From UHGV virus genome UHGV-0031292: DNA of 39,344 nucleotides; one strand, 5' to 3'. The stretch's first letter is position 1; every line of letters begins with the position of its first letter. This DNA is from a virus. Below, piece after piece: positions 5,367-33,689 of the stretch. Under the pieces are notes generated by a model, which was given only the letters and a program-made list of their open reading frames with translations, was not told the DNA's origin and did not search any database. The position numbers and the translations under genes were made by a program.

Positions 5367-5951
5367 TTATTGTTTGCTTTTTTCGTTCTGGTTGATGACA
5401 AATTCAATGTAACTTTCGATCTTTGCTTTCTCGGTTTCGGGTAACAATGCGTAGCGCGAGCGGTCATAGTTGATGGTCGCAGGGTCGTGCGGGTGAATCA
5501 GTAATTCATAGCCGTGACGCCCGAATGCGGATGCAACATTCTCCAGGGTGGAAATGGAAACGCTGACCTCATTGTTTAACAGGCGGCTGATTGTCACCTG
5601 GGCGACGCCGGATGCGCGGTGAAGTTTTCCCTGTGTTGAAAGGTCGCGGCTTTCGCTCATCCAGCGTTCCAGGTTGTGAGCCGCCAGTTGACCAATGTCG
5701 CTTGGTCCGACAGGCTGAAAACCTTCCTGAGAAAGCGAGCGATCGATATCAAGCCAGTTACGGGGTTTATTGGCGGCAGCTTCAATTTTTCGTGCAACCT
5801 GGTCGCCGATAACCTTCTTGCCAAGAGCCCAGCGGTTTACCAGATTTGCCTGAGTTCCAAGTTTTTCAGCCATCCGCGTCTGAACACCATTGAATTCACG
5901 GTCGATCAAGTCGTTGAGATTTTGCCTGCGGACGTCCTGGATACTTTTCAT
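5367..5951 (-). CDS. Prophage repressor (CI-like) with two tandem HTH_XRE domains and no recognisable S24 autocleavage domain
   Basis: 194-aa ORF divergent from cro; two HTH segments (QTRMAEKLGTQANLVNRWALGKK... and HRASGVAQVTISRLLNNEVSVSISTLENVA). Confidence 0.65.
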   Translation of the reverse strand: MKSIQDVRRQNLNDLIDREFNGVQTRMAEKLGTQANLVNRWALGKKVIGDQVARKIEAAANKPRNWLDIDRSLSQEGFQPVGPSDIGQLAAHNLERWMSESRDLSTQGKLHRASGVAQVTISRLLNNEVSVSISTLENVASAFGRHGYELLIHPHDPATINYDRSRYALLPETEKAKIESYIEFVINQNEKSKQ

Positions 5952-6105: not shown

Positions 6106-6336
6106 ATGAGCGATAACGGACATTTCGATTTCAAAAAGCACTGGCTTGCACTTACTCCGGATGAGCGTGAAGCCTTCGCACAGGAAGCCGGAACGACGAG
6201 TCACTATATCCAGACTCACTTAACAGGTAAGCGCAAAATGCCAGGTAAAGTATTGATGAATGGGCTTTTTAAAGCCTGTAAAACAAGACAATGGCTGCGC
6301 TCAAAAGCAGAACTGGCATACTTCTTCTACTCATGA
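6106..6336 (+). CDS. Cro-like small DNA-binding regulator
   Basis: 76-aa ORF divergent from the repressor, just downstream of the OR-like sites; HTH-like segment EAGTTSHYIQTHLTGKR. Confidence 0.5.
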   Translation: MSDNGHFDFKKHWLALTPDEREAFAQEAGTTSHYIQTHLTGKRKMPGKVLMNGLFKACKTRQWLRSKAELAYFFYS

Positions 6337-7494: not shown

Positions 7495-8276
7495 ACAACG
7501 TTTTTACCGCGATACAAAACCGTGACGGAGAAGCCCTTTCTCGCATGTCAGGTTATGAGCATCAGTACGTCAACAATGACAATGTGGTGAACATGTCAGC
7601 AGAGAGGCTTGTTGATGCCCTTTTCAAACAGCTGAAACAACTGTTTCCGGCGGCAGTAGTAACCAACCTGAAGACTCCAGAGCAGGAAGTTGCTGCAAAA
7701 CAGCAGTGGATTGCTGCGTTTGCCGAAGGGGGGATCCGAACCCGTGAACAGGTTTCTGCTGGTATGCGCCACGCCCGCGCCAGTGAATCTCCGTTCTGGC
7801 CGTCGCCAGGGCAATTCATCAAGTGGTGTAAAGACAGCAAGATGGTTCTTGGCGTCACCATTGACGATGTGATGGCGGAGTTTCACCGGTACAGCAAGGA
7901 AAAAAGTTTATATCCTGGTGGTCCCGAAAGATTCCCGTGGCGACATCCGGTTATGTACTGGGTCGTATGTGATACCCGCCGTGCAATGTATCAGCGCCAG
8001 CTTAGCGAGATTGAGGTTGAGAAACACGCGCGCAGGCTGCTCGATGATTGGGCGAAAAAGGTAGCTTCCGGACAGCAGATACCCGATCCGGTGATCAGCA
8101 TACAGGCAAAGCCAGAACCCATGAGTACGCCTCCGGACACAGGGAGAGACGTTTACCATCCACCAGGGCGAAGTTTCGGGTGTATGCCTAACGCCGCCAC
8201 ATTGGGGGGAATAACACCGGCACAGTGGCTGATGGAGGAATACAGGCGGGGAAAGGCGGCAGGATTTATCAAGTAA
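7491..8276 (+). CDS. Replication protein P-like (helicase loader)
   Basis: Recognisable similarity to lambda P (GGIRTREQVSAGMRHARASESPFWPSPGQFIKWCKD); GTG start overlapping the O stop (GTGA), GGGAGGA upstream. Confidence 0.75.
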   Translation: MNNVFTAIQNRDGEALSRMSGYEHQYVNNDNVVNMSAERLVDALFKQLKQLFPAAVVTNLKTPEQEVAAKQQWIAAFAEGGIRTREQVSAGMRHARASESPFWPSPGQFIKWCKDSKMVLGVTIDDVMAEFHRYSKEKSLYPGGPERFPWRHPVMYWVVCDTRRAMYQRQLSEIEVEKHARRLLDDWAKKVASGQQIPDPVISIQAKPEPMSTPPDTGRDVYHPPGRSFGCMPNAATLGGITPAQWLMEEYRRGKAAGFIK

Positions 8277-8314
8277 TACCAGCGCGATAGCGCATTTTTT
8301 TACGCCTTGATAGT

Positions 8315-8390
8315 TACCTTCTGGGTAACAAAATATTCTAAACCATATTGATTTCGTGTCTTATGTGGTTTTTAATTACCTCAGGGGTAA
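8315..8390. promoter_or_regulatory. Two exact palindrome copies (8315-8329, 8376-8390) immediately upstream of the 8394 gene
   Basis: TTACCTTCTGGGTAA and TTACCTCAGGGGTAA; the second ends 4 bp before the ATG. Confidence 0.6.
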
Positions 8391-8393
8391 ATT

Positions 8394-8738
8394 ATGAGAA
8401 AACAGATACAGGCTCTTGGTCGACTCAAAACAGGCCAGATGAACAAAACAGAATCTGCGTATTGCCAGCACCTTGAGTTGCGTAAACGTGCAGGAGAAAT
8501 CGTCTGGTATCGATTTGAGGGTATCAAGCTGCGGTTAGCTGACAACACGTTCTATACGCCCGATTTTGCTGTGATGCTCGCCACCGGCGAGATGGAACTG
8601 CACGAAGTGAAAGGTTTCTGGACCGACGACGCCAGGGTGAAAACCAAAGTCGCCGCAGATCAGTATCCGTTCCGAATCATCGGGGTAACGGTTAAACCAA
8701 AGAAAGCAGGTGGTGGCTGGAACATCGAAGAGTTCTGA
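8394..8738 (+). CDS. Small PD-(D/E)XK-type nuclease-like protein (DUF1064-like)
   Basis: 114-aa ORF with motif TPDFAV...ELHEVKG. Confidence 0.5.
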   Translation: MRKQIQALGRLKTGQMNKTESAYCQHLELRKRAGEIVWYRFEGIKLRLADNTFYTPDFAVMLATGEMELHEVKGFWTDDARVKTKVAADQYPFRIIGVTVKPKKAGGGWNIEEF

Positions 8739-8799
8739 ATCGACGATCTTTTTAGTTATCAATGTAATCAATAAGTTATGTGGATAAGCGAGGGTAAAG

Positions 8800-9477
8800 A
8801 TGGAAAGTAATATCAAAGGGTTAGTTGCCGCCGGGCATGAGATGGCTTCGGAACTGAAAGCAGAATGTGGTGCCGTTGATATGCGCAGTGTGGCAAAGCT
8901 GATCAGCGATTTGGCAACGCAACTGGAAGTGCAACTGGTGCGTGCTAATGCGATGGCCGAAGACCAGCAGAAAGCGATTGAGTCAATTAAGCAGGCTGAT
9001 GCAGCTGTTAAGTTGGCACACGAGAAGTTTTCGGCGCTGGCGGCGGAGAATGCGGGGCTGAAGGCGGGACATTCATATTTCTCATATGGCTCTGAGCATA
9101 ATTTCGAATGGCACAAAACTGCTGAGGAAGCTATCGAATCGGCTGAGGCTGCAATCGACGACTATCGCGGTGATGCTTGCGATGGATGGAGCGAAGAGGT
9201 CGATAGTATTTGCTGGGGAATCATCATGCAATCGTCAACGAAGGTTGGCGAACGACCACGCAACGAGGATGACTGTTGTGATCCTGCGATCGATACGATT
9301 TGCGATTATGCGCTTCTGCCTAATATCGAAACCCCAGCCACCGACGCTTTCCTAGCTGAAGTTCGAGCGCAGGGTGTAGATATGGCAGCTTGCGCCCTTG
9401 ATAACGTAAACCAGTTCAATTACGCAAACATGCTCGATGATTTAGCGCAGAAGATTCGCAAAGGAGTGCAGTCATGA
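8800..9477 (+). CDS. Hypothetical early protein
   Basis: 225-aa ORF with GAGGG ribosome-binding site; no recognised domain. Confidence 0.5.
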   Translation: MESNIKGLVAAGHEMASELKAECGAVDMRSVAKLISDLATQLEVQLVRANAMAEDQQKAIESIKQADAAVKLAHEKFSALAAENAGLKAGHSYFSYGSEHNFEWHKTAEEAIESAEAAIDDYRGDACDGWSEEVDSICWGIIMQSSTKVGERPRNEDDCCDPAIDTICDYALLPNIETPATDAFLAEVRAQGVDMAACALDNVNQFNYANMLDDLAQKIRKGVQS

Positions 9478-9974
9478 GCAACATCGACAAACGCGCATTA
9501 CGTCATAGCGCAGAAAGCATAATCGGCATTCTGGAAAACATTGCCGGGTTCGAACCATCTGATATCGACGGCGACTCTGTAGAGCTCCGCTTTGAAACTG
9601 AGGACGGTTTCGATACTGGTTGTGACGTTAGCATTGTTGACCAGTGCCAGAAAACCGCTGATGTAGTTCGGGCGCTGCTGGATGAGCTGGAAAGAAACCA
9701 GCAATACATCAAACGCCGCGACCAGGAGAACGAGGATATTGCGCTTACGGTTGGGAGGCTGCGCGTTGAGCTTGAAGCAGAAAAACAGCGGGCAAAAGTT
9801 CTATTTATGGAAAATGCTCGGCTTAAGTCAGGCATAGCCGGTCTGATACACCTCGGTATTCGATATGCAGATGTTGAGGTCATGAAAATTGCTGGAGATG
9901 CCCAGCTTTCTACCCCATGCACTGACAGCATCATAAACAGCATTGCAACAGGCATTCGCATCAAAGGAGAGTGA
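9474..9974 (+). CDS. Hypothetical early protein (coiled-coil segment)
   Basis: 166-aa ORF overlapping the upstream stop (ATGA). Confidence 0.5.
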   Translation: MSNIDKRALRHSAESIIGILENIAGFEPSDIDGDSVELRFETEDGFDTGCDVSIVDQCQKTADVVRALLDELERNQQYIKRRDQENEDIALTVGRLRVELEAEKQRAKVLFMENARLKSGIAGLIHLGIRYADVEVMKIAGDAQLSTPCTDSIINSIATGIRIKGE

Positions 9975-9975
9975 T

Positions 9976-10491
9976 ATGGCGTTAACACACCACGAACTCT
10001 GTCAGATTGCGTACAAGTTCCTTAAGCGCAACGGGTTCAAGGTTTGCTTTCATGACCGCTTTGTTGCTGTAACCAGTACCGGAGAACAGCCAGATGCTAT
10101 GGGATTCAGAAATTCAGCATCATACCTGATAGAGGCGAAGTGTTCTCGTGCTGACTTGTTGGCAGATAGAAAAAAGCGTTTCCGTAAAAATCCCTCACTT
10201 GGCATGGGCGACTGGCGATTCTTTATTAGTGAGCCGGAAATTATTTCAGTTGAGGATTTACCTCCCGGCTGGGGATTACTTCACGTTGTTAACGGAAGAG
10301 TACGGAAAGTACATGGATGGCCCAGGGGTAATTGCTGTTGGGGTAATCCTGACGATAAGCCATTTACTGGGAATAAGCAGGTTGAATGCGATTACATGTT
10401 ATCTGCATTAAGGCGCATGGAGTTGAGAGGGCACCTTAATGAAATATATGACGGTGTGATTGTTAATAAGAAAGAAGGAAACGCGGCATGA
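9976..10491 (+). CDS. Hypothetical protein with PD-(D/E)XK-like motif
   Basis: Start MALTHH after AAAGGAGAG; motif PDAMGF...LIEAKCS. Confidence 0.5.
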   Translation: MALTHHELCQIAYKFLKRNGFKVCFHDRFVAVTSTGEQPDAMGFRNSASYLIEAKCSRADLLADRKKRFRKNPSLGMGDWRFFISEPEIISVEDLPPGWGLLHVVNGRVRKVHGWPRGNCCWGNPDDKPFTGNKQVECDYMLSALRRMELRGHLNEIYDGVIVNKKEGNAA

Positions 10492-11042
10492 TCACTATTA
10501 CCAAAGGGCGACTGCTGACAATCAAGCAGTGGCGCGAAATATACGGACCTGGTAGCAACGTTGTACTGCCAGCAGAAGAAGCGGAAGAACTGGCACGGAT
10601 TGCACTGGCATCGCTGGAAGCAGAGTCTGTAAGCCAAACTTACAACTTGCCAGAATTGATCGAAGGCATGGAAGTTTCCATTGATGTAAGCACTTGTGAT
10701 GCTGATTTAGGTAATCGCTATTTCGGCACCGTCACCGAGGCGTTAGAACTTGATACAGCCAAGAATGGTTACATCCTCCTGGTTCAGGACGCAGAGCCAA
10801 ACTTCGATGTAAATGGCAACTCTCCGAGTTGGATAAGCTGTAGTGATCAAATGCCTGAAAAGGGCCAGAACGTGCTTATTTCGGTGAATTTCGATAGCTC
10901 TCTGGTTGAACCGCTAATATGCTCCGCACGCTATACCGGAAGCACCTTTCGGCGCGGAGATGCAACGATTAAGCCGGGTAATGGTATTGAGCAAGCAACT
11001 CACTGGATGCCGCTACCAGAACCGCCGCAGGAGGTGAAGTGA
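10488..11042 (+). CDS. Hypothetical phage protein with C-terminal DUF551-like domain
   Basis: 184-aa ORF; C-terminal WISCSDQMPE...ATHWMPLPEPP. Confidence 0.5.
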   Translation: MITITKGRLLTIKQWREIYGPGSNVVLPAEEAEELARIALASLEAESVSQTYNLPELIEGMEVSIDVSTCDADLGNRYFGTVTEALELDTAKNGYILLVQDAEPNFDVNGNSPSWISCSDQMPEKGQNVLISVNFDSSLVEPLICSARYTGSTFRRGDATIKPGNGIEQATHWMPLPEPPQEVK

Positions 11043-11404
11043 TGGACTATTCACAGTTAAGTGATTTTGAAATTAACGTGGCGGTATTCGAAGCCATTCA
11101 TAGCGGATCACCGGATTACAAAGAAGGTGAGAATGGCGATATGGTGTTTGTCTCATTTGAGGGAGACATTGTAAACGGAGACGCAGTTGAAGTAGAAGTT
11201 GAGCGCGGATCCTTTAACCCATGCGCAAACCCAGCAGACGCATGGCCGATTATTGCTGATAACGGAGTTAACATTCTCTGGGACTGGAACGAAAGCGGTT
11301 TGCACGGTGCTTCTGCCAACCCTATTTGGGAGCATGAGCATGAAAATGTTCTCCGAGCCGCCATGATTGTATTTCTCATGATGCAGGAAAATCAGAATGG
11401 CTAA
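11042..11404 (+). CDS. Hypothetical protein
   Basis: ATG after GGAGGTGAAGTG; acidic 120-aa product. Confidence 0.45.
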   Translation: MDYSQLSDFEINVAVFEAIHSGSPDYKEGENGDMVFVSFEGDIVNGDAVEVEVERGSFNPCANPADAWPIIADNGVNILWDWNESGLHGASANPIWEHEHENVLRAAMIVFLMMQENQNG

Positions 11405-11735
11405 ATCAGCAGCAGAGCGCAAAGCTGCTCAGAGAGCCAGACAAGCTGCATCTGGTGTGCGTAAGCTGGAAATTGTGCTTGATGCTCAGGAAATTGAAAT
11501 GCTTGAGCGTAACTGTGCCGCGCGTCGCCCCGGGCGTGCGCCTTACGAATTTGGTGAGTATATAGCGTTACTGATCCGCCAGGATGATGCACGCGTGCGC
11601 GGGCGTATAAAATCGATCAGCAGAAAATGTTGCGGTAAGTGCGGCGAGAGAGTTCCAGTTAATTCATGCCCGTGTAATGGTGACTCGCAATGCTGGGTGA
11701 CTAAAGGCTGGCATGAAACGAAATTAATAGTGTGA
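11397..11735 (+). CDS. Small basic protein with C-terminal Cys-rich zinc-ribbon-like motif; candidate late-gene regulator (speculative)
   Basis: 112-aa ORF, last early-right gene before terminator and packaging genes; motif CCGKCGERVPVNSCPCNG. Confidence 0.4.
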   Translation: MAKSAAERKAAQRARQAASGVRKLEIVLDAQEIEMLERNCAARRPGRAPYEFGEYIALLIRQDDARVRGRIKSISRKCCGKCGERVPVNSCPCNGDSQCWVTKGWHETKLIV

Positions 11736-11743
11736 CATGTCAC
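11732..11743. promoter_or_regulatory. 12-bp perfect palindrome GTGACATGTCAC overlapping the stop codon of the 11397 gene (copy 1 of 2)
   Basis: Identical 12-mer at 31923-31934. Confidence 0.4.
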
Positions 11744-11784
11744 GAGTAGATTATGCATGATGAATTTGATGGGTTTTGAATACT

Positions 11785-11810
11785 GCCGCCAACTATGGCG
11801 GCTTTATTTT
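11785..11810 (+). terminator. Intrinsic terminator between early-right and packaging genes (GCCGCC-AACTAT-GGCGGC plus TTTATTTT)
   Basis: Perfect 6-bp GC stem and T-rich tail; lies inside the N-terminal extension of the track ORF 11776-12450. Confidence 0.55.
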
Positions 11811-11853
11811 GCATGGTACTATTACCACAACGGTAACTATTACCACGGTGGTT

Positions 11854-12450
11854 ATGATGCCTGCTGAACCTAAAACCTATAAACGCAAATCAACGCAATT
11901 TAAGCCACTAACAGCAATGCAGGAGGCTTATTGCCAGTCATACATCAAAACGCCTGAAAACCAGACTCAGGCAGCGATTAACGCAGGATTCTCCCCAAAT
12001 ACAGCGGCAGTTAAAGCCAGTGTCATGATGCGCGATGAACGCATTCAAAAACGGATTGCCGAGTTGATGGAGGAGCGCAACAAACGAATGCGCGTCAGTG
12101 CTGATTACGTTCTCATGCGCCTGGTGGAGATCGACCAGATGGACGTGATCGACATCCTCAACGACGATGGGAGCCTTAAACCAATCCGTGAGTGGCCGAA
12201 AATCTGGCGCACTACGCTTAGTGGCTTTGATCTGTCATCGACCATCATGAACATGAACGAGGATTCGATAGAGACAATCCTCAAAAAAATTAAATGGCCT
12301 GACAAGGTGAAGAACCTTGAGCTGATTGGTAAGCATGTTGATGTCAACGCGTTCAAAGAACGTCTGGATGTTAATGTGAATGTGACAATTGCTGATCGCA
12401 TAGCAGCAGCCAGGAAGCGACTCAAAGAACGTCAGGATGGTAATCAGTGA
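11854..12450 (+). CDS. Terminase small subunit
   Basis: Directly upstream of and overlapping the large terminase; start moved to MMPAEPK because the longer ORF includes a terminator hairpin. Confidence 0.6.
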   Translation: MMPAEPKTYKRKSTQFKPLTAMQEAYCQSYIKTPENQTQAAINAGFSPNTAAVKASVMMRDERIQKRIAELMEERNKRMRVSADYVLMRLVEIDQMDVIDILNDDGSLKPIREWPKIWRTTLSGFDLSSTIMNMNEDSIETILKKIKWPDKVKNLELIGKHVDVNAFKERLDVNVNVTIADRIAAARKRLKERQDGNQ

Positions 12451-13922
12451 CAGATACAGCGTTATCTCCTGAAGAGCAGTTGATCGAGGATATTGCAGGG
12501 TTCACTCACGATCCGCTTGGCTATGCCCTCTATGCGTTCCCGTGGGGGGAAGAGGGGACTGAACTGGCACATGCCACCGGCCCACGTCAGTGGCAGGCTG
12601 ATGCGTTCCGAGAGATACGTGATCACCTGCAGAATCCAGAGACGCGCTATCAGCCGCTTATGCTGGCACGCGCTTCTGGTCACGGTATTGGTAAATCCGC
12701 ATTCATCTCAATGCTGATCAACTGGGGCATGTCCACTTGCGAGGATTGTAAGGTCGTGGTGACCGCCAACACCGACAACCAGCTACGAACGAAGACCTGG
12801 CCGGAAATTATCAAGTGGTCGAACCTTGCTATCACGAAAGACTGGTTTACCTGTACCGCTACCGCGATGTACAGCAATGATCCTGGACACGACAAGCGGT
12901 GGCGAGCTGACGCAATACCCTGGTCTGAGCACAACACTGAGGCATTCGCCGGACTACACAACGAGCGCAAACGCATCATCGTGGTATTCGATGAAGCGTC
13001 GAACATTGCGGATCTGGTGTGGGAAGTTGCCGAGGGTGCGCTAACGGACGAAGACACTGAGATTATCTGGGTGGCGTTCGGAAACCCGACGCGTAATACC
13101 GGACGTTTCCGCGAATGTTTCCGCAAATATAAACACCGCTGGAAAACTGCGCAGATTGACAGCCGGACGGTGGAAGGCACCAACAAACAGCAGTTGCAGA
13201 AATGGGTTGATGACTACGGGGAAGACAGCGACTTCGTTAAAATCCGTGTGCGCGGCATATTCCCTGATGCATCTGAATTGCAGTTTATCCCTACCGGTCT
13301 TACTGACGAGGCAATGAAACGGGTGGTAACTGCTGCGCAGGTGGCACATGCTCCGGTGATAATCGGCGTTGACCCTGCATACTCCGGTGTTGATGACGCG
13401 GTGATATACCTGCGGCAGGGGCTGCACAGTAAGGTGCTGTGGACCGGCAACAAGACCACTGACGATCTGATTATGGCAAAGCGTATCGCTGACTTTGAAG
13501 ACCAGTATCAGGCTGACGCGGTGTTCATCGACTTCGGTTACGGTACCGGGCTGAAGTCAATCGGTGACGGTTGGGGGCGCACATGGCAACTTGTTCCGTT
13601 CGGTGGCGCGTCTACTGACCCGCAGATGCTCAACAAGCGTGGGGAGATGTTCAACTCATGCAAGACATGGCTGAGGCTGGGCGGCATGCTGGATGACCAG
13701 GAAACAGCGGACGACCTGTCGGCGGCAGAGTACAAAGTTCGAGTGGACGGTAAAATCGTTATCGAACCGAAGGAAGATATCAAGGAGCGGCTTGGGCGTT
13801 CGCCGGGTAAAGGCGATGCGCTACTGCTGACGTTTGCTTTCCCGGTGTCAAAGCGCCTGCGACTTCCCGGGCAGCAGAACCAGCAAGGCAAGGCGCTTAC
13901 CGAGTACGATCCATATGCTTAG
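12447..13922 (+). CDS. Terminase large subunit (ATPase/nuclease)
   Basis: 491-aa ORF with P-loop-like SGHGIGKS and DEAS (Walker B-like) motifs; GTG start overlapping upstream stop. Confidence 0.8.
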   Translation: MTDTALSPEEQLIEDIAGFTHDPLGYALYAFPWGEEGTELAHATGPRQWQADAFREIRDHLQNPETRYQPLMLARASGHGIGKSAFISMLINWGMSTCEDCKVVVTANTDNQLRTKTWPEIIKWSNLAITKDWFTCTATAMYSNDPGHDKRWRADAIPWSEHNTEAFAGLHNERKRIIVVFDEASNIADLVWEVAEGALTDEDTEIIWVAFGNPTRNTGRFRECFRKYKHRWKTAQIDSRTVEGTNKQQLQKWVDDYGEDSDFVKIRVRGIFPDASELQFIPTGLTDEAMKRVVTAAQVAHAPVIIGVDPAYSGVDDAVIYLRQGLHSKVLWTGNKTTDDLIMAKRIADFEDQYQADAVFIDFGYGTGLKSIGDGWGRTWQLVPFGGASTDPQMLNKRGEMFNSCKTWLRLGGMLDDQETADDLSAAEYKVRVDGKIVIEPKEDIKERLGRSPGKGDALLLTFAFPVSKRLRLPGQQNQQGKALTEYDPYA

Positions 13923-14737
13923 TCTTTATTTTTATCCTCGAAACCTGATAATCCAGATAGAACACCAAAGTTATTAAAAACGTTTGGCTTACCAGATTTT
14001 AATCCGGATAAGTTGTGTTGCTCCAAAAAGTTGCTAATTGTTTGGCCGTTGCCAAGTGCAAGGCTTTTTATTTGAGATTTTTCAGGGTATTTGAGTTTGT
14101 ATTCGTCGAAATCATTTTGGAGGGTCTTATATGCCTCATTCATTCTTCCAAGAGTTTCCGATATCTCTTTTAATGAATGATTTAGAGCTGCTAACTGAGC
14201 ACTGGCGGATCTCAATTCGTCATCTTTAGCTTTCAACTCGGCAGTCAATTCCCCCATACTATTCTTTGATCGAATAATCTCTTCTTTCATCTCTTGGATG
14301 TCTTTTTCCGCGCCAGTCTTAACTTTGTCGTATGTAACATCTTTTTTAGCCAATAACCTCTGCAGTCTTGTTTCACGCTGGATTTTTCTTGCCTTCAGGT
14401 GATTTTCGATTGAGTCATTATTATCAAGAGGCTTTGCTTGCCATACGTTAATGATATTGTTTACCCATGGTAATAGGCAGCAGATAGCAATTACAGATAA
14501 GCATGGATAAAACATAACAGTTTTCCATGTGCTGTTATCTGAGATATATGAAATTTTATCTATTATGTTTGATTTGCTAAAAAATAGATAAAGAATTGAT
14601 TTCCAGTTGAAGGCGCACCAGGACATAACAAAAGCACCAAGCACAGGGTTTTTGGCTCTATTCACGGCAGTATTGGCAGTAGATAAAAACAGCTCTTTAA
14701 ACGATTCAAACATGCTAATTACCTTGAAGTTTTTCAT
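13919..14737 (-). CDS. AT-rich moron: membrane protein (2 predicted TM helices) with long C-terminal coiled coil; candidate superinfection-exclusion or abortive-infection factor
   Basis: Opposite strand to flanking late genes; low GC; hydrophobic N-terminus; heptad-rich C-terminus; start taken as MKNFKV (internal ATG). Confidence 0.55.
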   Translation of the reverse strand: MKNFKVISMFESFKELFLSTANTAVNRAKNPVLGAFVMSWCAFNWKSILYLFFSKSNIIDKISYISDNSTWKTVMFYPCLSVIAICCLLPWVNNIINVWQAKPLDNNDSIENHLKARKIQRETRLQRLLAKKDVTYDKVKTGAEKDIQEMKEEIIRSKNSMGELTAELKAKDDELRSASAQLAALNHSLKEISETLGRMNEAYKTLQNDFDEYKLKYPEKSQIKSLALGNGQTISNFLEQHNLSGLKSGKPNVFNNFGVLSGLSGFEDKNKD

Positions 14738-14741
14738 GATT

Positions 14742-14756
14742 ATACCTTTAAGGTAA
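14742..14756. promoter_or_regulatory. Palindrome copy (variant ATACCTTTAAGGTAA) a few bp upstream of the moron start, overlapping a TATAAT on the minus strand
   Basis: Matches xxACC-N5-GGTAA; minus strand reads ...TTACCTTAAAGGTATAATCATG. Confidence 0.45.
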
Positions 14757-14772
14757 TTTGCGGTCATCAAGC

Positions 14773-14798
14773 AAAAAAATGCCCGGACGAACCGGGCG
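14773..14798 (-). terminator. Intrinsic terminator on minus strand (GCCCGG-TTCGT-CCGGGC plus T7) between tRNA and moron
   Basis: Perfect 6-bp GC stem followed by TTTTTTT on the minus strand. Confidence 0.6.
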
Positions 14799-14959
14799 AA
14801 CTGGAAGCAATGAGTTATGCCTTCCGTGGCTGTACGGGTTTACAGCATGAAGTCATCGCAATGGCGTCCTGCTGTAAAAAGGGCGGTGATAGTCCTTCAA
14901 GGGAAACCATCACCGCCAAGCACCTGGAACTTCTGGCATCACGGTCCTTAGGCGTGATT

Positions 14960-15036
14960 CTGGCGTGGCATGCAGGATTCGAACCTGCGACCAACCGCTT
15001 AGAAGGCGGTTGCTCTGTCCGACTGAGCTAATGCCA
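14960..15036 (-). tRNA. tRNA-Arg, anticodon UCU (decodes AGA)
   Basis: Minus-strand 77-nt sequence GTGGCATTAGCTCAGTCGGACAGAGCAACCGCCTTCTAAGCGGTTGGTCGCAGGTTCGAATCCTGCATGCCACGCCA folds as a cloverleaf (7-bp acceptor stem, CTTCTAA anticodon loop, GGTTCGAATCC T-arm, encoded CCA). Confidence 0.85.
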
Positions 15037-15359
15037 CAACGCTGAGAGCACTTAGCCTGTTAAGGCGCCACACTTTGTCGCGGCTCCATAAATGCTCTCA
15101 TCGTTGTACCCTCGTCTCTTCCGAGGCGTCACACCGAATCGCCGGGATGGTGAATCCCCGTGCGCGGAATAAAACCGCTCGACTTGCACATTCCGGCTAC
15201 CTGGTTCGTTTGCTCGAGCAAGGGAGGGTGCCCCTTAAACGTATCCAGACCGCTATCGGCGCATGTGCCATACGCCGTACTGCTCAAAATAAAAGCTCAC
15301 TCCTCCTGTTCAATTTAACGACAAGCCAGTCAGGTTAATAACCGGAATGAACTCTTTGC

Positions 15360-15374
15360 TTACCTGAAAGGTAA
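15360..15374. promoter_or_regulatory. Exact palindrome copy TTACCTGAAAGGTAA upstream of the portal operon; start of a conserved promoter-like module
   Basis: Identical 15-mer at 34324-34338; CATATGTGGTT follows about 45 bp downstream. Confidence 0.6.
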
Positions 15375-15464
15375 TAATTCGTGCGTTAAATGTCAACTAT
15401 CTACGATAAATAAATCATATGTGGTTAAATTGGTAATAATTTAATTGCGTACGGAGTCATTGAT

Positions 15465-15671
15465 ATGTGCATGGGTAGCTCACCATCAGTGCCTGCAACA
15501 CCAGAAGTTCAGGCAGCACCACAGGAGCAGGATGCCGCCGTTGTTGATGCCCGCGACGAAGAAACACGTCGCCGTCGCGCTGCTGCTGGTCGTAGTTCTA
15601 CGCTGCTTACCGGTTCTCAGGGCGACACATCAACCGCTAATACCAGCGGTAAAACGCTGCTTGGTCAGTAA
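15465..15671 (+). CDS. Small hypothetical protein preceding the portal gene
   Basis: 68-aa ORF with GGAG ribosome-binding site; low-complexity Ala/Arg-rich product. Confidence 0.4.
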   Translation: MCMGSSPSVPATPEVQAAPQEQDAAVVDARDEETRRRRAAAGRSSTLLTGSQGDTSTANTSGKTLLGQ

Positions 15672-15685
15672 CCGGAGTCATTGAA

Positions 15686-17365
15686 ATGGCGGAAACAACT
15701 AAAGAGCGATTGAACAAACAGTTCGCACAACTTGAAAGCGAGCGTCAATCGTTCGAGCCGCACTGGCGCGAGTTGAGTGATTACATCAACCCGCGTGGTT
15801 CCCGCTTTCTGACTTCTGAGGTCAACCGTAACGATCGACGCAATACACGCATTATTGATTCGACCGGGACTATGGCGGCGCGCACTCTCGCCAGCGGCAT
15901 GATGTCAGGCATCACAAGCCCCGCGCGTCCGTGGTTTCGCCTGGCTACGCCAGATCCTGAAATGATGGATTATGGCCCTGTTAAGTTGTGGCTTGAGGCG
16001 GTGCAGAACCGCATGAACGATATGTTCAATAAGTCGAATCTCTATCAGTCGCTGCCGCAGTTATACGGAAGCCTCGGCACATACAGCACTGGTGCAATGG
16101 CGGTGCTGGAGGATGACGAGGACATTATTCGCACAATGCCATTCCCGATAGGCAGTTACTACCTGGCTAACTCACCTCGTGGCAGTGTGGACACCTGTTT
16201 TCGCAAGTTCTCTATGACTGTTCGTCAGCTTGTTCAGGAGTTCGGGCTAAATAACGTCAGCGAATCCGTAAAAAGCATGTGGGAAAGCGGCACCTACGAG
16301 AAGTGGATCGAAGTGATGCATTCGGTTTACCCGAACATTGACCGCGATACATCGAAGCTGGATAGCAAGAACAAGCCATTCAAATCGGTTTATTACGAGG
16401 TTGGTGGCGATAACGACAAGTTGTTGCGTGAGTCCGGATTCGATGAGTTTCCAATTATGGCTCCGCGCTGGGAAGTTAATGGCGAAGATGTTTATGGATC
16501 ATCATGCCCGGGTATGCTGGCGCTTGGACCTGTTAAGGCATTGCAGCTTCTCCAGAAGCGCAAGTCGCAGTTGATTGATAAAGCCACCAATCCGCCGATG
16601 GTTGCTCCGACTTCCCTCAAGAATCAGCGTGCCTCCCTTCTTCCTGGCGACATCACGTATATCGATCAGATTACTGGTCAGGATGGCTTCAGGCCTGCTT
16701 ATCTGGTTAACCCCAGTACAGCAGATTTGGTGGCAGACATTCAGGACACTCGTCAAATCATTAACAGCGCCTACTTCGTCGATCTGTTCATGATGTTGCA
16801 GAACATCAATACCCGCTCAATGCCTGTTGAAGCGGTGATCGAAATGAAAGAAGAAAAGCTTCTGATGTTGGGGCCGGTTCTGGAGCGTCTGAACGACGAA
16901 TGTCTTAATCCTCTCATTGACCGCGCTTTCTCGATGATGGTGCGTAAAAACATGCTGCCGCCACCGCCTGACGCGATGGAAGGCATGCCCCTGAAGGTCG
17001 AATACATTTCCGTCATGGCTCAGGCGCAGAAGTCTATCGGCCTGTCCAGTCTGGCGTCCACGGTTAACTTCATTGGTCAACTTGCGCAAGCGAAACCAGA
17101 AGCTCTCGACAAACTCAACGTTGATCAGGCGATCGATGCATTCGCTGATATGTCCGGAGTGTCTCCAACCGTCATTGTTCCGCAGGAACAGGTTGAGCAG
17201 GCTCGCCAACAACGGGCACAGCAGCAACAGCAGCAACAAATGATGGCGATGGGGATGGCGGCGGCACAGGGTGCCAAGACGCTAAGCGAAGCTAAAACTT
17301 CGGATCCGAGTGTTTTGTCAGCTATGGCGAATGCAGTTAGTGGTCAGGGTGGGCAATCACAATGA
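15686..17365 (+). CDS. Portal (head-to-tail connector) protein, podovirus type
   Basis: 559-aa ORF after terminase and before scaffold/capsid; CCGGAG ribosome-binding site. Confidence 0.8.
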   Translation: MAETTKERLNKQFAQLESERQSFEPHWRELSDYINPRGSRFLTSEVNRNDRRNTRIIDSTGTMAARTLASGMMSGITSPARPWFRLATPDPEMMDYGPVKLWLEAVQNRMNDMFNKSNLYQSLPQLYGSLGTYSTGAMAVLEDDEDIIRTMPFPIGSYYLANSPRGSVDTCFRKFSMTVRQLVQEFGLNNVSESVKSMWESGTYEKWIEVMHSVYPNIDRDTSKLDSKNKPFKSVYYEVGGDNDKLLRESGFDEFPIMAPRWEVNGEDVYGSSCPGMLALGPVKALQLLQKRKSQLIDKATNPPMVAPTSLKNQRASLLPGDITYIDQITGQDGFRPAYLVNPSTADLVADIQDTRQIINSAYFVDLFMMLQNINTRSMPVEAVIEMKEEKLLMLGPVLERLNDECLNPLIDRAFSMMVRKNMLPPPPDAMEGMPLKVEYISVMAQAQKSIGLSSLASTVNFIGQLAQAKPEALDKLNVDQAIDAFADMSGVSPTVIVPQEQVEQARQQRAQQQQQQQMMAMGMAAAQGAKTLSEAKTSDPSVLSAMANAVSGQGGQSQ

Positions 17366-32214: not shown

Positions 32215-32739
32215 TTACCAAAACTTGTACCACGGGGATTTATCCTTCAATGGACAATCCTTCCATCGTGTGGCCAACCATTCATATTCTTTAAAATATG
32301 TGTTTATGTTTTCTTTTTCTCTAATGGCTTGTATAAGAGGTAGCGCAATCTGATAGTTATTTACAACGGAGCTGTAAAATACTTCCTTAATCATGGTCTC
32401 ATCATAAGTTTTCCGCTTCACGCTCACAGCCATGCGTTCGTAGAAACCTAGACAGTAAATTATTTCTCTCTTCTCTGTCTTTTCTTCATCCGTAAGATCA
32501 GCCTGCCCATTGCTTGGATACATATAAGAGCGGAATGATTTGTTCGATTCGTGAATGCGGCGCATAGTAGATAGGCCTTTCTTATAATCTACATCAAACC
32601 TGCTTTCACCAAGGAATACTGAAGTGTGTACTTTTCTCGCTGTATTTACATTATAAATAATAGTAGCGATAGCTATGAACAAGCCAAGCGAAACCGCGAC
32701 TGCACTTACGATTTGAGCCACAGCCATGGCAAATTGCAT
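32215..32739 (-). CDS. Membrane-anchored protein of unknown function (N-terminal TM helix plus about 140-aa soluble domain), AT-rich accessory gene
   Basis: 179-aa ORF (GTG at 32754 or ATG MQFAMAV); single N-terminal hydrophobic helix; low GC. Confidence 0.5.
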   Translation of the reverse strand: MQFAMAVAQIVSAVAVSLGLFIAIATIIYNVNTARKVHTSVFLGESRFDVDYKKGLSTMRRIHESNKSFRSYMYPSNGQADLTDEEKTEKREIIYCLGFYERMAVSVKRKTYDETMIKEVFYSSVVNNYQIALPLIQAIREKENINTYFKEYEWLATRWKDCPLKDKSPWYKFW

Positions 32740-32772
32740 TTCTTCACTTAACACAAACTGTCTCCAGACATG

Positions 32773-32963: not shown

Positions 32964-33689
32964 TCAGAAGAACCCTGCTTTGTCGTTGATGTACTCCGCG
33001 TGCGTCTGGATATCACGCAGGCATTTGCTCACACCGACGATGTAGCAGAACATGGTGGTCAGCTCCGCCGCCGCGCCCGATACGTCGTGCCCGTCGTCCT
33101 GTAACTGGTTCAGCAGATTCATCAGCAGTGAGTTCTCCGTCAGGCCGAGAACACCAGACGGAGAATGAATCAGACTGCGGTAGCCGGGCTTCAGTGGGGC
33201 GCTGTAGGTTTTGTTCTCTATCTTCATTGCCTGCATCACTGCTGATGCTGTGGCGTTGGCTACCTGGTCGGCAACCATCTTTATGCGTTCTTCCTGCGGG
33301 AGCGAGTTTTTAATGTAACTTCCGGTGCGGCGGATCTGAGGAAGAACCTCACCTGTAACCCATTTACGAAAGCGGTAGGGGATAGTGCCTGGTGTCACTG
33401 CGTCGCGGCAGCGGAGGATCAGTGTGTAGAGGCCTGACTCGGAGATGATGTTGATCTCTTTTACTCGGCTGTCAAAAATCGCACGATGTTCATGCCCTAT
33501 GTTGAACATAGACCTTTCATCATCATCCAGTTTTTCAAGTGCTTGGGTGACGTTTTGGATACGCAGCGCACTACAAACGTCTTGGGCTACAAACCATGGT
33601 TGGCCATCGATAATGATGGAACGGATAGGGTTAACAGATTCAAATTTGAAGATGGCAGTTTGAGCATTAGCCATGGTGGTTATCTCCAC
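32964..33689 (-). CDS. Bro-N (KilA-N-like) domain antirepressor
   Basis: 241-aa ORF with N-terminal Bro-N-like segment (FESVNPIRSIIIDGQPWFVAQDVCSALRIQN); C-terminal region paralogous to the 33990 gene. Confidence 0.7.
   Translation of the reverse strand: MEITTMANAQTAIFKFESVNPIRSIIIDGQPWFVAQDVCSALRIQNVTQALEKLDDDERSMFNIGHEHRAIFDSRVKEINIISESGLYTLILRCRDAVTPGTIPYRFRKWVTGEVLPQIRRTGSYIKNSLPQEERIKMVADQVANATASAVMQAMKIENKTYSAPLKPGYRSLIHSPSGVLGLTENSLLMNLLNQLQDDGHDVSGAAAELTTMFCYIVGVSKCLRDIQTHAEYINDKAGFF

Follow-up and report, generated by a model that had tools for sequence, protein, structure and literature searches.

The 39,344-nucleotide (nt) viral genome UHGV-0031292, the whole of which is called the window below, carries between its terminase and portal genes an AT-rich accessory open reading frame (ORF) on the minus strand and, next to it, a gene for tRNA-Arg(UCU). 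The comparisons presented here lead us to regard this locus as two independent units lying side by side. One is a backbone non-coding unit, which on the minus strand appears to comprise a structured leader RNA, the tRNA, a structured trailer and a strong terminator, and which is conserved across much of the genus Uetakevirus. The other is a single-gene cassette, whose predicted promoter lies under an operator-like palindrome and whose product is probably anchored in the inner membrane. An initial annotation of the window had combined the two into one insertion, a ‘moron’ placed between ‘convergent late genes’; the terminase and portal genes are both on the plus strand, however, and only the accessory ORF converges on the terminase gene.

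From position 14773 onward the window matches phiV10, the O157 typing phages 9 and 10, TL-2011b, ZX5 and other Uetakevirus at 98-99.5%, and the complete 13900-15700 region is found at ~99% in 46 of 5426 complete E. coli genomes, where NCBI annotation gives a terminase, a hypothetical protein (WP_000787773.1, 272 aa), tRNA-Arg, a 68-aa protein and the portal. These phage and genome matches identify the window as a phiV10/epsilon15-like (Uetakevirus) E. coli prophage. A literature search for the RefSeq accession WP_000787773 found no paper.

A tRNA unit and a variable cassette

In composition and distribution the accessory ORF stands apart from its surroundings. The initial annotation had seen a reverse-oriented, low-GC gene here, and rightly so: the minus-strand ORF ends at 13919, and GC content over 13850-14749 is 0.33-0.41 versus 0.53-0.57 in the flanks (0.365 for the ORF itself, versus 0.55 for the terminase gene and 0.52 for the portal gene). 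The gene is absent from 15 of 15 near-identical phage records, with the junctions at 14773 and at the terminase stop codon, and homology to phiV10 (99.5%) begins precisely at 14773. At its other end the ORF abuts the terminase gene so closely that the two stop codons overlap (13920-13922 for terminase, 13919-13921 for the ORF). The proposed insertion between terminase and portal therefore holds for the ORF, which sits in a variable slot, but not for the tRNA, which belongs to the backbone shared with phiV10.

The same comparisons reveal a hot spot for cassettes, bounded by the terminase gene and the tRNA terminator and occupied by differing reverse genes in seven related phages. A gp49/66-family gene fills it in phiV10 and ZX5, and unrelated small reverse genes fill it in TL-2011b, PAS61 and SPN1S; the family of the accessory gene is absent from all five of these phages. 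Family members are found in the slot in EC.W1-9 (40% identity), BUCT711 (55%) and Salmonella prophages (71%), as well as in E. coli prophages with a 246-aa allele and in Cronobacter prophages, and the slot members are 40-75% identical across E. coli, Salmonella, Klebsiella and Cronobacter prophages. Prophage L013 combines two types of cassette, with a gp49/66-family gene and a family member in tandem. In a sample from IMG/VR, 25 Uetakevirus loci had both flanks, and the family was present in 6 of them.

The family also occurs at other kinds of locus. In the lambdoid phages KO-TP1 and ST11-VIM1phi8.2 the gene lies, again reverse-oriented, between the replication and nin genes (the P-ninB slot). 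Since about 200 nt of the tRNA trailer, including the terminator, precede the gene there without the tRNA (L003 3750-4000 for KO-TP1; L006 3680-3930 for ST11-VIM1phi8.2), these lambdoid copies were probably derived from the Uetakevirus locus by cassette transfer. Further members were found in a Vibrio inovirus and in a degraded Serratia island, where the family gene is kept alone. Finally, in a lambdoid prophage from a JGI metagenome (L145), three small genes (about 1.3 kb) separate a distant member from a 638-aa NACHT/AAA_22 ATPase and a DNA methylase (coordinates 8228-10144 and 10649-12505), a neighbourhood that looks like a prophage defence hot spot.

The tRNA itself is as well formed as had been claimed. 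ARAGORN calls a tRNA-Arg at 14961-15037 (-) with the anticodon tct at position 35, and the Rfam tRNA model RF00005 matches over all of its positions (1-71 of 71) with 73.3 bits (gathering score 29; E 1.5e-15). The gene encodes its own CCA, its 3’ end reading ...GCCACGCCA, and a tRNA-Arg is already annotated in related phage and E. coli records. It is backbone sequence, 99.5% identical to phiV10, and co-occurs with other cassettes. We considered and rejected the idea that it is a remnant of a host argU-type attachment site, because the tRNA is internal to the phage, lying between the terminase and portal genes, and keeps this place throughout the genus.

It was suggested initially that the tRNA may support AT-rich accessory genes. 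A stronger form of this idea is that tRNA and ORF form one functional module, in which the tRNA was acquired with an AGA-rich, AT-rich moron in order to translate it. The two genes do adjoin, AGA accounts for 5 of the 8 arginine codons in the ORF, and part of the tRNA trailer moves with the gene into lambdoid phages. However, the tRNA is present with unrelated cassettes in phiV10, TL-2011b, ZX5, PAS61 and SPN1S, and the family gene occurs without the tRNA in a Salmonella prophage (L015), KO-TP1 and ST11-VIM1phi8.2. Because each occurs without the other, tRNA and ORF are not one inserted unit but independent elements. The codon count points the same way, with 68 of the 73 AGA codons of the phage lying in other genes (40 other genes counted; 6.1 per 1000 codons), structural genes included and many in replication, tail and tailspike genes. 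AGA usage in E. coli is roughly 2 per 1000 codons. Since usage throughout the phage exceeds that of E. coli, the tRNA plausibly supplies an AGA decoder for phage genes generally rather than for the cassette. We therefore regard a joint module as refuted by the independent distributions, as far as the comparative data reach, and give it almost no weight.

In the Salmonella Uetakevirus-like prophage L015, a differing sequence of about 96 nt (within 5640-5745), which starts GTGGTG and ends TACCACAACCCA, replaces the tRNA. Neither ARAGORN nor Rfam calls a tRNA in it; it may be a tRNA-like or degenerate element.

On the minus strand the terminator (14797→14773) reads GCCCGG-TTCGT-CCGGGC followed by ATTTTTTT. 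It had been described as the insertion’s own. The hairpin and T-run are real and travel with the cassette as an upstream insulator, and in this limited sense the description holds, but the ORF begins downstream of them, with the tRNA on their other side, and there is no minus-strand terminator below 13919, downstream of the ORF. Given this position, the terminator would end the tRNA transcript, not that of the ORF, and would insulate the ORF promoter. On the plus strand no T-run follows the hairpin, so late transcription should pass through. The terminator is conserved and accompanies the cassette into lambdoid phages. The trailer that it closes has a minimum free energy of -68.1 kcal/mol (z -3.66 versus shuffles), with two long hairpins before the terminator, and might be released by tRNA processing as a separate small RNA. 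A minus-strand TTGACA -35 at 15395→15390 is a candidate tRNA promoter and could drive a leader-tRNA-trailer transcript.

Directly 5’ of the tRNA lies a structured RNA of about 245 nt (minus strand, ~15285→15038), which may be the most promising lead at this locus. Over 12 diverse copies it has 40 base pairs in seven helices, eight of the pairs with compensatory changes; 98.1% of cells are paired, versus 31-41% when the partners are slid by 1-3 columns, and the covariation score is 0.197 versus 0.02-0.06 for the slid pairings. Its closing helix accommodates a hypervariable insert, in which a T-loop-like GGTTCGATTCC is sometimes seen, and the helix stops exactly at the 5’ end of the tRNA. Rfam 15 gave no match for the element in the window, L015, P1 or mEp460. 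Two plus-strand ORFs that overlap it (15075-15338 and 15160-15318) were rejected as coding, as the indels are not multiples of three and the helices covary.

This element is not confined to the genus. At least 120 IMG/VR contigs contain its invariant 19-mer, GGTAGCCGGAATGTGCAAG, and some two thirds of these contigs are not Uetakevirus. In seven non-Uetakevirus contigs with flanking ORFs that we inspected, the element was near a cI-like immunity region every time, and in three of these it closely followed the cI-like repressor gene, with both on one strand; it is likewise downstream of a cI-like repressor gene in the annotated records of mEp460 and a Stx2a phage (Stx2a_WGPS2). It also lies between trnI and ban in P1, P7, D6 and SJ46, and is present in Stx2a, Stx2c and mEp460 phages. 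The paper on ZX5 and a preprint on Pas small RNAs mention neither the structured RNA element nor the palindrome described below.

Table 1. Features of the terminase-portal locus and copies of the operator-like palindrome (positions in the window)
Feature	Position	Strand	Basis
Terminase large subunit gene	12447..13922	+	ORF list; annotated as terminase in E. coli F719 and phiV10
Accessory ORF, most likely 264 aa	13919..14713	-	Stop 13919-13921; phrog_4780 match, homologue alignment
Inverted-repeat second arm	14714..14729		Pairs with 14746-14761; 16 nt, 88% complementary
Predicted accessory-ORF promoter, sigma-70-like	14739..14767	-	10/12 consensus matches
15-bp palindrome	14742..14756		Over promoter spacer and first bases of -10
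Intrinsic terminator	14773..14797	-	Hairpin and T-run
Structured tRNA 3’ trailer, 188 nt	14773..14960	-	Folding versus shuffles
tRNA-Arg, anticodon UCU, CCA encoded	14961..15037	-	ARAGORN, Rfam
Conserved structured RNA element	15038..15285	-	Covariation over 12 copies; just outside 13919-15036
Perfect operator-like palindrome TTACCTGAAAGGTAA	15360..15374		Between portal operon (+) and minus-strand TTGACA -35
Conserved 68-aa ORF, precedes portal	15465-15671		Context
Portal (head-tail connector) gene	15686..17365	+	PF12236 Head-tail_con
Palindrome copies	211, 5233, 5295, 6007, 6055, 6392, 8314, 8376, 11822, 11840, 14742, 15360, 32884, 33944, 34324, 37241		Motif search, <=1 mismatch

The accessory gene and its product

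Three start codons have to be weighed for the accessory gene: ATG 14713, ATG 14737 as chosen by PGAP (272 aa), and TTG 14770, which opens the mechanical ORF (283 aa). The methionine at 14713 is the start in 32 of 32 aligned homologues, and the PHROG profile begins at this same residue (residue 9 of the 272-aa form). The predicted -10 hexamer sits atop the 14737 ATG, and the transcript would start near 14732, downstream of both other start codons, leaving a leader of about 19 nt with AAGG 8 nt before ATG 14713. On the strength of the homologue starts, the profile start and the promoter position, we take ATG 14713 as most likely the true start, giving a 264-aa product.

A truncated form of the window allele occurs in E. 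coli (P0027, 163 aa), 100% identical over the first ~155 residues. Among E. coli records it accounts for 29 member sequences versus 228 intact ones, and thus the gene is sometimes disrupted, in a minority of records.

The protein matches phrog_4780, annotated as a family of unknown function, with E 3.2e-137 (residues 9-272 of the 272-aa form versus profile positions 1-267 of 275); with 264 of the 275 profile positions matched, this is a full-length hit. The N-terminal half also matches phrog_13369 and phrog_35327, which share the N-terminal module. The expectation that the protein has no recognisable curated family was borne out. Scans against Pfam, NCBIfam and PADLOC-DB v2 gave only sub-threshold coiled-coil matches at residues ~105-260, far below the cut-offs; the best PADLOC match, to DndD at E 2e-5, covers the coiled coil alone, and we read it as coiled-coil noise. 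A PDB profile search returned nothing below E 0.08, and a Foldseek search of BFVD with the predicted structure gave no match at E<=0.001. As judged by these searches, the protein falls outside any named family except a PHROG of unknown function.

The family is nevertheless large, as searches with a profile of the N-terminal 160 residues found 2538 cluster representatives (50% identity) at E<=0.001 and 393 at 1e-10. In nearly all the matches listed the module is at or near the N-terminus, although in a few it begins only 37-82 residues from the start; most of these proteins are 200-514 aa long. When ten long, distant relatives were scanned with Pfam for fused domains, none was found. Taken together, the family spans enterobacterial podo-, sipho- and filamentous prophages.

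An alignment of 33 sequences (the window protein and 32 homologues) divides the protein into two very different parts. Residues 1-160 are strongly conserved, with 55 invariant columns that include N22-P23, G26, S31-W32, F35-N36-W37-K38, P82-W83, P95, D97, D100-S101, T115-R116-L117 and T133-G134; many invariant residues fall in a juxtamembrane helix at about 100-160. The last ~100 residues are hypervariable and barely alignable, except for a K/D/N-rich end. Of the two transmembrane helices originally proposed, hydropathy supports one clearly (~62-93, Kyte-Doolittle peak 2.15), while the other is marginal (~23-45, peak 1.23). Residues 91-125 contain 9 K/R versus 5 D/E, and this positive charge following the second helix suggests that the coiled coil is cytoplasmic. 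The protein is probably inner-membrane-anchored, with its N- and C-termini in the cytoplasm.

The coiled coil, put at about 180 aa in the initial annotation, was overestimated. Heptad regularity is strongest at ~133-212 within a continuous helix of ~100-208, which points to a coiled coil of ~80-110 aa, and the final ~55 residues form a K/D-rich tail that is low-confidence or disordered. AlphaFold2, run on the 33-sequence alignment, predicts an all-helical protein with a long helix at 134-208 (predicted local distance difference test, pLDDT, up to 92) and a disordered tail; the monomer’s predicted template modelling score (pTM) of 0.24 makes the model informative for secondary structure only, its tertiary arrangement not being trustworthy. 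Profile and structure searches, which had been suggested as a check, thus yielded phrog_4780 and an all-helical prediction, but no functional family.

An operator-like palindrome over the predicted promoter

Upstream of the gene lies a predicted promoter with a -35 of ATGACC (14767→14762), a 17-nt spacer and a -10 of TATAAT (14744→14739), and the same architecture is found upstream of diverged family members in other Uetakevirus prophages. A palindrome at this TATAAT had already been remarked on, and the two do overlap. The palindrome, TTACCTTAAAGGTAT on the minus strand (14756→14742), is one copy, with one mismatch, of TTACC-N5-GGTAA, and the second arm of an inverted repeat (14714-14729) places a third AATTACCTT half-site over the Shine-Dalgarno region.

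The window contains 16 copies of TTACC-N5-GGTAA at up to one mismatch versus 0.64 expected, and no shuffle reached 16. Two pairs (5233/5295 and 6007/6055) flank a helix-turn-helix repressor gene at 5367-5951, the second of them separating it from a cro-like ORF at 6106, and another pair (8314/8376) is just upstream of a DUF1064 gene at 8394. Single copies are found at the integrase gene (211), after cro (6392), in the divergent region between tRNA and portal (15360), and before the genes for a DUF4760 protein (32884, one mismatch), a Bro-type anti-repressor (33944), the tailspike (34324) and the holin (37241). The copy at 15360 is conserved in place in phiV10, SPN1S, BUCT711, EC.W1-9, TL-2011b, ZX5 and PAS61. 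SPN1S has the same network, with palindrome triplets on each side of its repressor gene, the product of which is 43% identical overall and conserved at the N-terminus.

Because the repressor gene is flanked on each side by grouped copies, pairs in the window and triplets in SPN1S, TTACC-N5-GGTAA is probably the operator of the immunity repressor. A site for a host factor or for a phage activator was considered and is disfavoured, as the clustering around the repressor gene fits a repressor operator. If the palindrome is the operator, the repressor would directly repress many promoters, and not merely an OL/OR (left and right operator) pair.

Near the start of the small terminase gene (11822-11854), the coding sequence contains two palindrome copies side by side, TTACCACAACGGTAA and TTACCACGGTGGTTA, which are conserved in phiV10, EC.W1-9 and SPN1S; these may be operators, part of the packaging site, or chance. 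The DUF4760 gene (32215-32754, -) is itself a second AT-rich (GC 0.39) reverse accessory gene and adjoins the Bro-N anti-repressor gene (32964-33689).

The palindrome is found at the same promoter position in nine diverged Uetakevirus copies of the family gene, more weakly in BUCT711 (two mismatches). In most of these an (A/G)TGAC -35 precedes the palindrome, which overlaps a TAKAAT-like -10. In the lambdoid copy of KO-TP1 it is degraded to TTACCATAAGATACA.

These observations bear on the interpretation of the locus proposed initially, that of a classical moron with its own promoter active in the stable lysogen, a product acting in superinfection exclusion or abortive infection, and a promoter palindrome that is weak or irrelevant. 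Such a gene would be expected to be AT-rich, reverse-oriented and in a hot spot, as this one is, and the other places where the family occurs (the lambdoid P-ninB slot, an inovirus, the neighbourhood of a NACHT gene and a degraded island) suit it; moreover, a single operator copy with one mismatch would imply non-cooperative binding. Against this, the palindrome is kept at the promoter in all diverged Uetakevirus copies and has decayed in KO-TP1, where the cognate repressor is absent, which argues that it is used. It overlaps the -10 with the same geometry as at the cro-side promoter, and the accessory gene has no terminator downstream. With the -10 under an operator-like site, the idea of a moron expressed in the lysogen is weakened, and we now consider it rather unlikely. 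More probably, the cassette is under repressor control in Uetakevirus, and would be quiet or at least turned down in the lysogen, to be expressed early once infection or induction occurs.

Possible function and comparison with known systems

The interpretation that we prefer is that tRNA unit and cassette are independent, that the cassette is repressor-controlled, and that its membrane-anchored product acts in phage-phage or phage-host conflict; we would put the probability of this whole at about 45%. In this proposal, the accessory gene would be held down by the prophage repressor, host RNA polymerase would switch it on early after infection or upon induction, and converging late transcription would later oppose it. 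The product would act at the membrane as a protein of the superinfection-exclusion or abortive-infection type, with the conserved N-terminal module serving as effector or anchor and the variable C-terminus as the specificity part. A membrane conflict role of this kind seems to us most likely because the gene is accessory, mobile and dispensable, occurs in three phage morphotypes and is kept in an island remnant, and because a conserved membrane module is combined with a variable distal part, with a NACHT gene nearby in one prophage.

Several points weigh against this interpretation. The homology searches point to no function, and binding of the repressor to the palindrome is inferred from the layout of the sites. 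Occupancy of a lone operator with one mismatch may be incomplete, so that expression in the lysogen is possible. Temperate phages usually express their exclusion genes in the lysogen, an awkward fit with repressor control. No arms race is needed for coiled coils and disordered tails to change rapidly, and the C-terminal hypervariability by itself therefore proves little. Finally, the topology is uncertain given the marginal first hydrophobic helix, and the low pTM leaves the fold of the monomer insecure.

Repressor control, if it is confirmed, would be shared with early and late promoters of the phage, and this would speak for the alternative of an accessory lytic-cycle or host-takeover protein that modulates cell division, membrane physiology, DNA entry or lysis timing. 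The many invariant residues of the juxtamembrane helix would suit such a role, as they suggest a conserved partner, and the gene is resident in the slot across several genera. It is dispensable, however, with most close relatives lacking it, and its orientation opposes the late operon; its presence in a non-lytic filamentous phage and alone in an island remnant is hard to fit to a role in lysis or the virion. We judge this alternative improbable. Early, repressor-controlled expression, the hypervariable C-terminus and placement in accessory slots would also be expected of a counter-defence protein that neutralises a variable, membrane-associated immune system of the host or of a prophage early in infection. 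We think this very unlikely, as there is no similarity to known anti-defence proteins, and the lone gene kept in a degraded island better suits a host-beneficial gene.

If the exclusion or abortive-infection role proposed in our preferred interpretation is correct, the family would be a very widespread single-gene system missed by current defence catalogues, and an unusual case of an accessory conflict gene under the prophage repressor rather than constitutive. A bolder version, in which the whole family would constitute a novel group of conflict proteins of phages, each encoded by a single gene and anchored in the membrane, with hypervariable coiled-coil ends setting specificity, repressor-controlled in Uetakevirus and acting in infection or induction, strikes us as doubtful. 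For annotation, the analysis calls for a start at ATG 14713, for tRNA and cassette to be treated as separate, and for the terminator to be assigned to the tRNA transcript.

A moron in the sense of Hendrix and colleagues is an extra gene with its own promoter and terminator that is expressed from the prophage. The accessory gene resembles one in being present or absent in close relatives at a fixed junction, in its deviant GC content and, by sequence evidence only, in having its own promoter; it differs in having no terminator of its own downstream and, probably, in lacking repressor-independent expression. The operator-like palindrome over the -10 and the missing downstream terminator thus make the classic lysogen-expressed moron of the initial annotation doubtful. 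The locus nevertheless appears to work like a moron or accessory cassette, and can be described as an accessory membrane gene of a phage, lying in a hot spot and unusual in its probable regulatory link. A positional comparison is offered by the phiV10 cassette PhiV10p03 (Pfam Phage_gp49_66), a single small gene in the same slot and the same reverse orientation. Its protein is unrelated, however, no palindrome within one mismatch lies in front of it, and its record has an annotated terminator after the terminase gene.

A functional comparison is with superinfection-exclusion and abortive-infection membrane proteins such as P22 SieA and SieB, lambda SieB and RexB, HK97 gp15 and T4 Imm and Sp. 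Phage proteins of this type are small, non-essential inner-membrane proteins encoded at variable accessory positions, often by AT-rich, oppositely oriented genes. The accessory protein is like them in its small size, predicted membrane anchor and accessory position, but it matches none of them, nor any PADLOC model, in sequence, profile or fold, and its long, predicted cytoplasmic coiled coil with a hypervariable end is a feature that they do not share. Furthermore, the Sie and Rex genes of prophages are expressed in the lysogen, whereas the accessory promoter here carries a phage operator-like site.

For the tRNA, comparison can be made with other rare-codon tRNAs carried by phages, for example P1 trnI, trnA and trnT and the tRNA-Arg of O157 typing phages 9 and 10, SPN9TCW and phiv142-3. 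As in these cases, a canonical tRNA resides in a temperate phage, and the codon that it decodes is used more by the phage than by the host. What differs is its setting between a conserved structured leader and a structured trailer and, probably, a promoter under operator control. Finally, mycobacteriophage L5 has ‘stoperators’, asymmetric repressor sites within transcription units. The palindromes of the window are like them in providing many copies of one repressor-type site beyond the immunity region; the sites here, putative and known from their sequence, are by contrast symmetric 15-bp palindromes placed at promoters, over the spacer and -10 or at +1.

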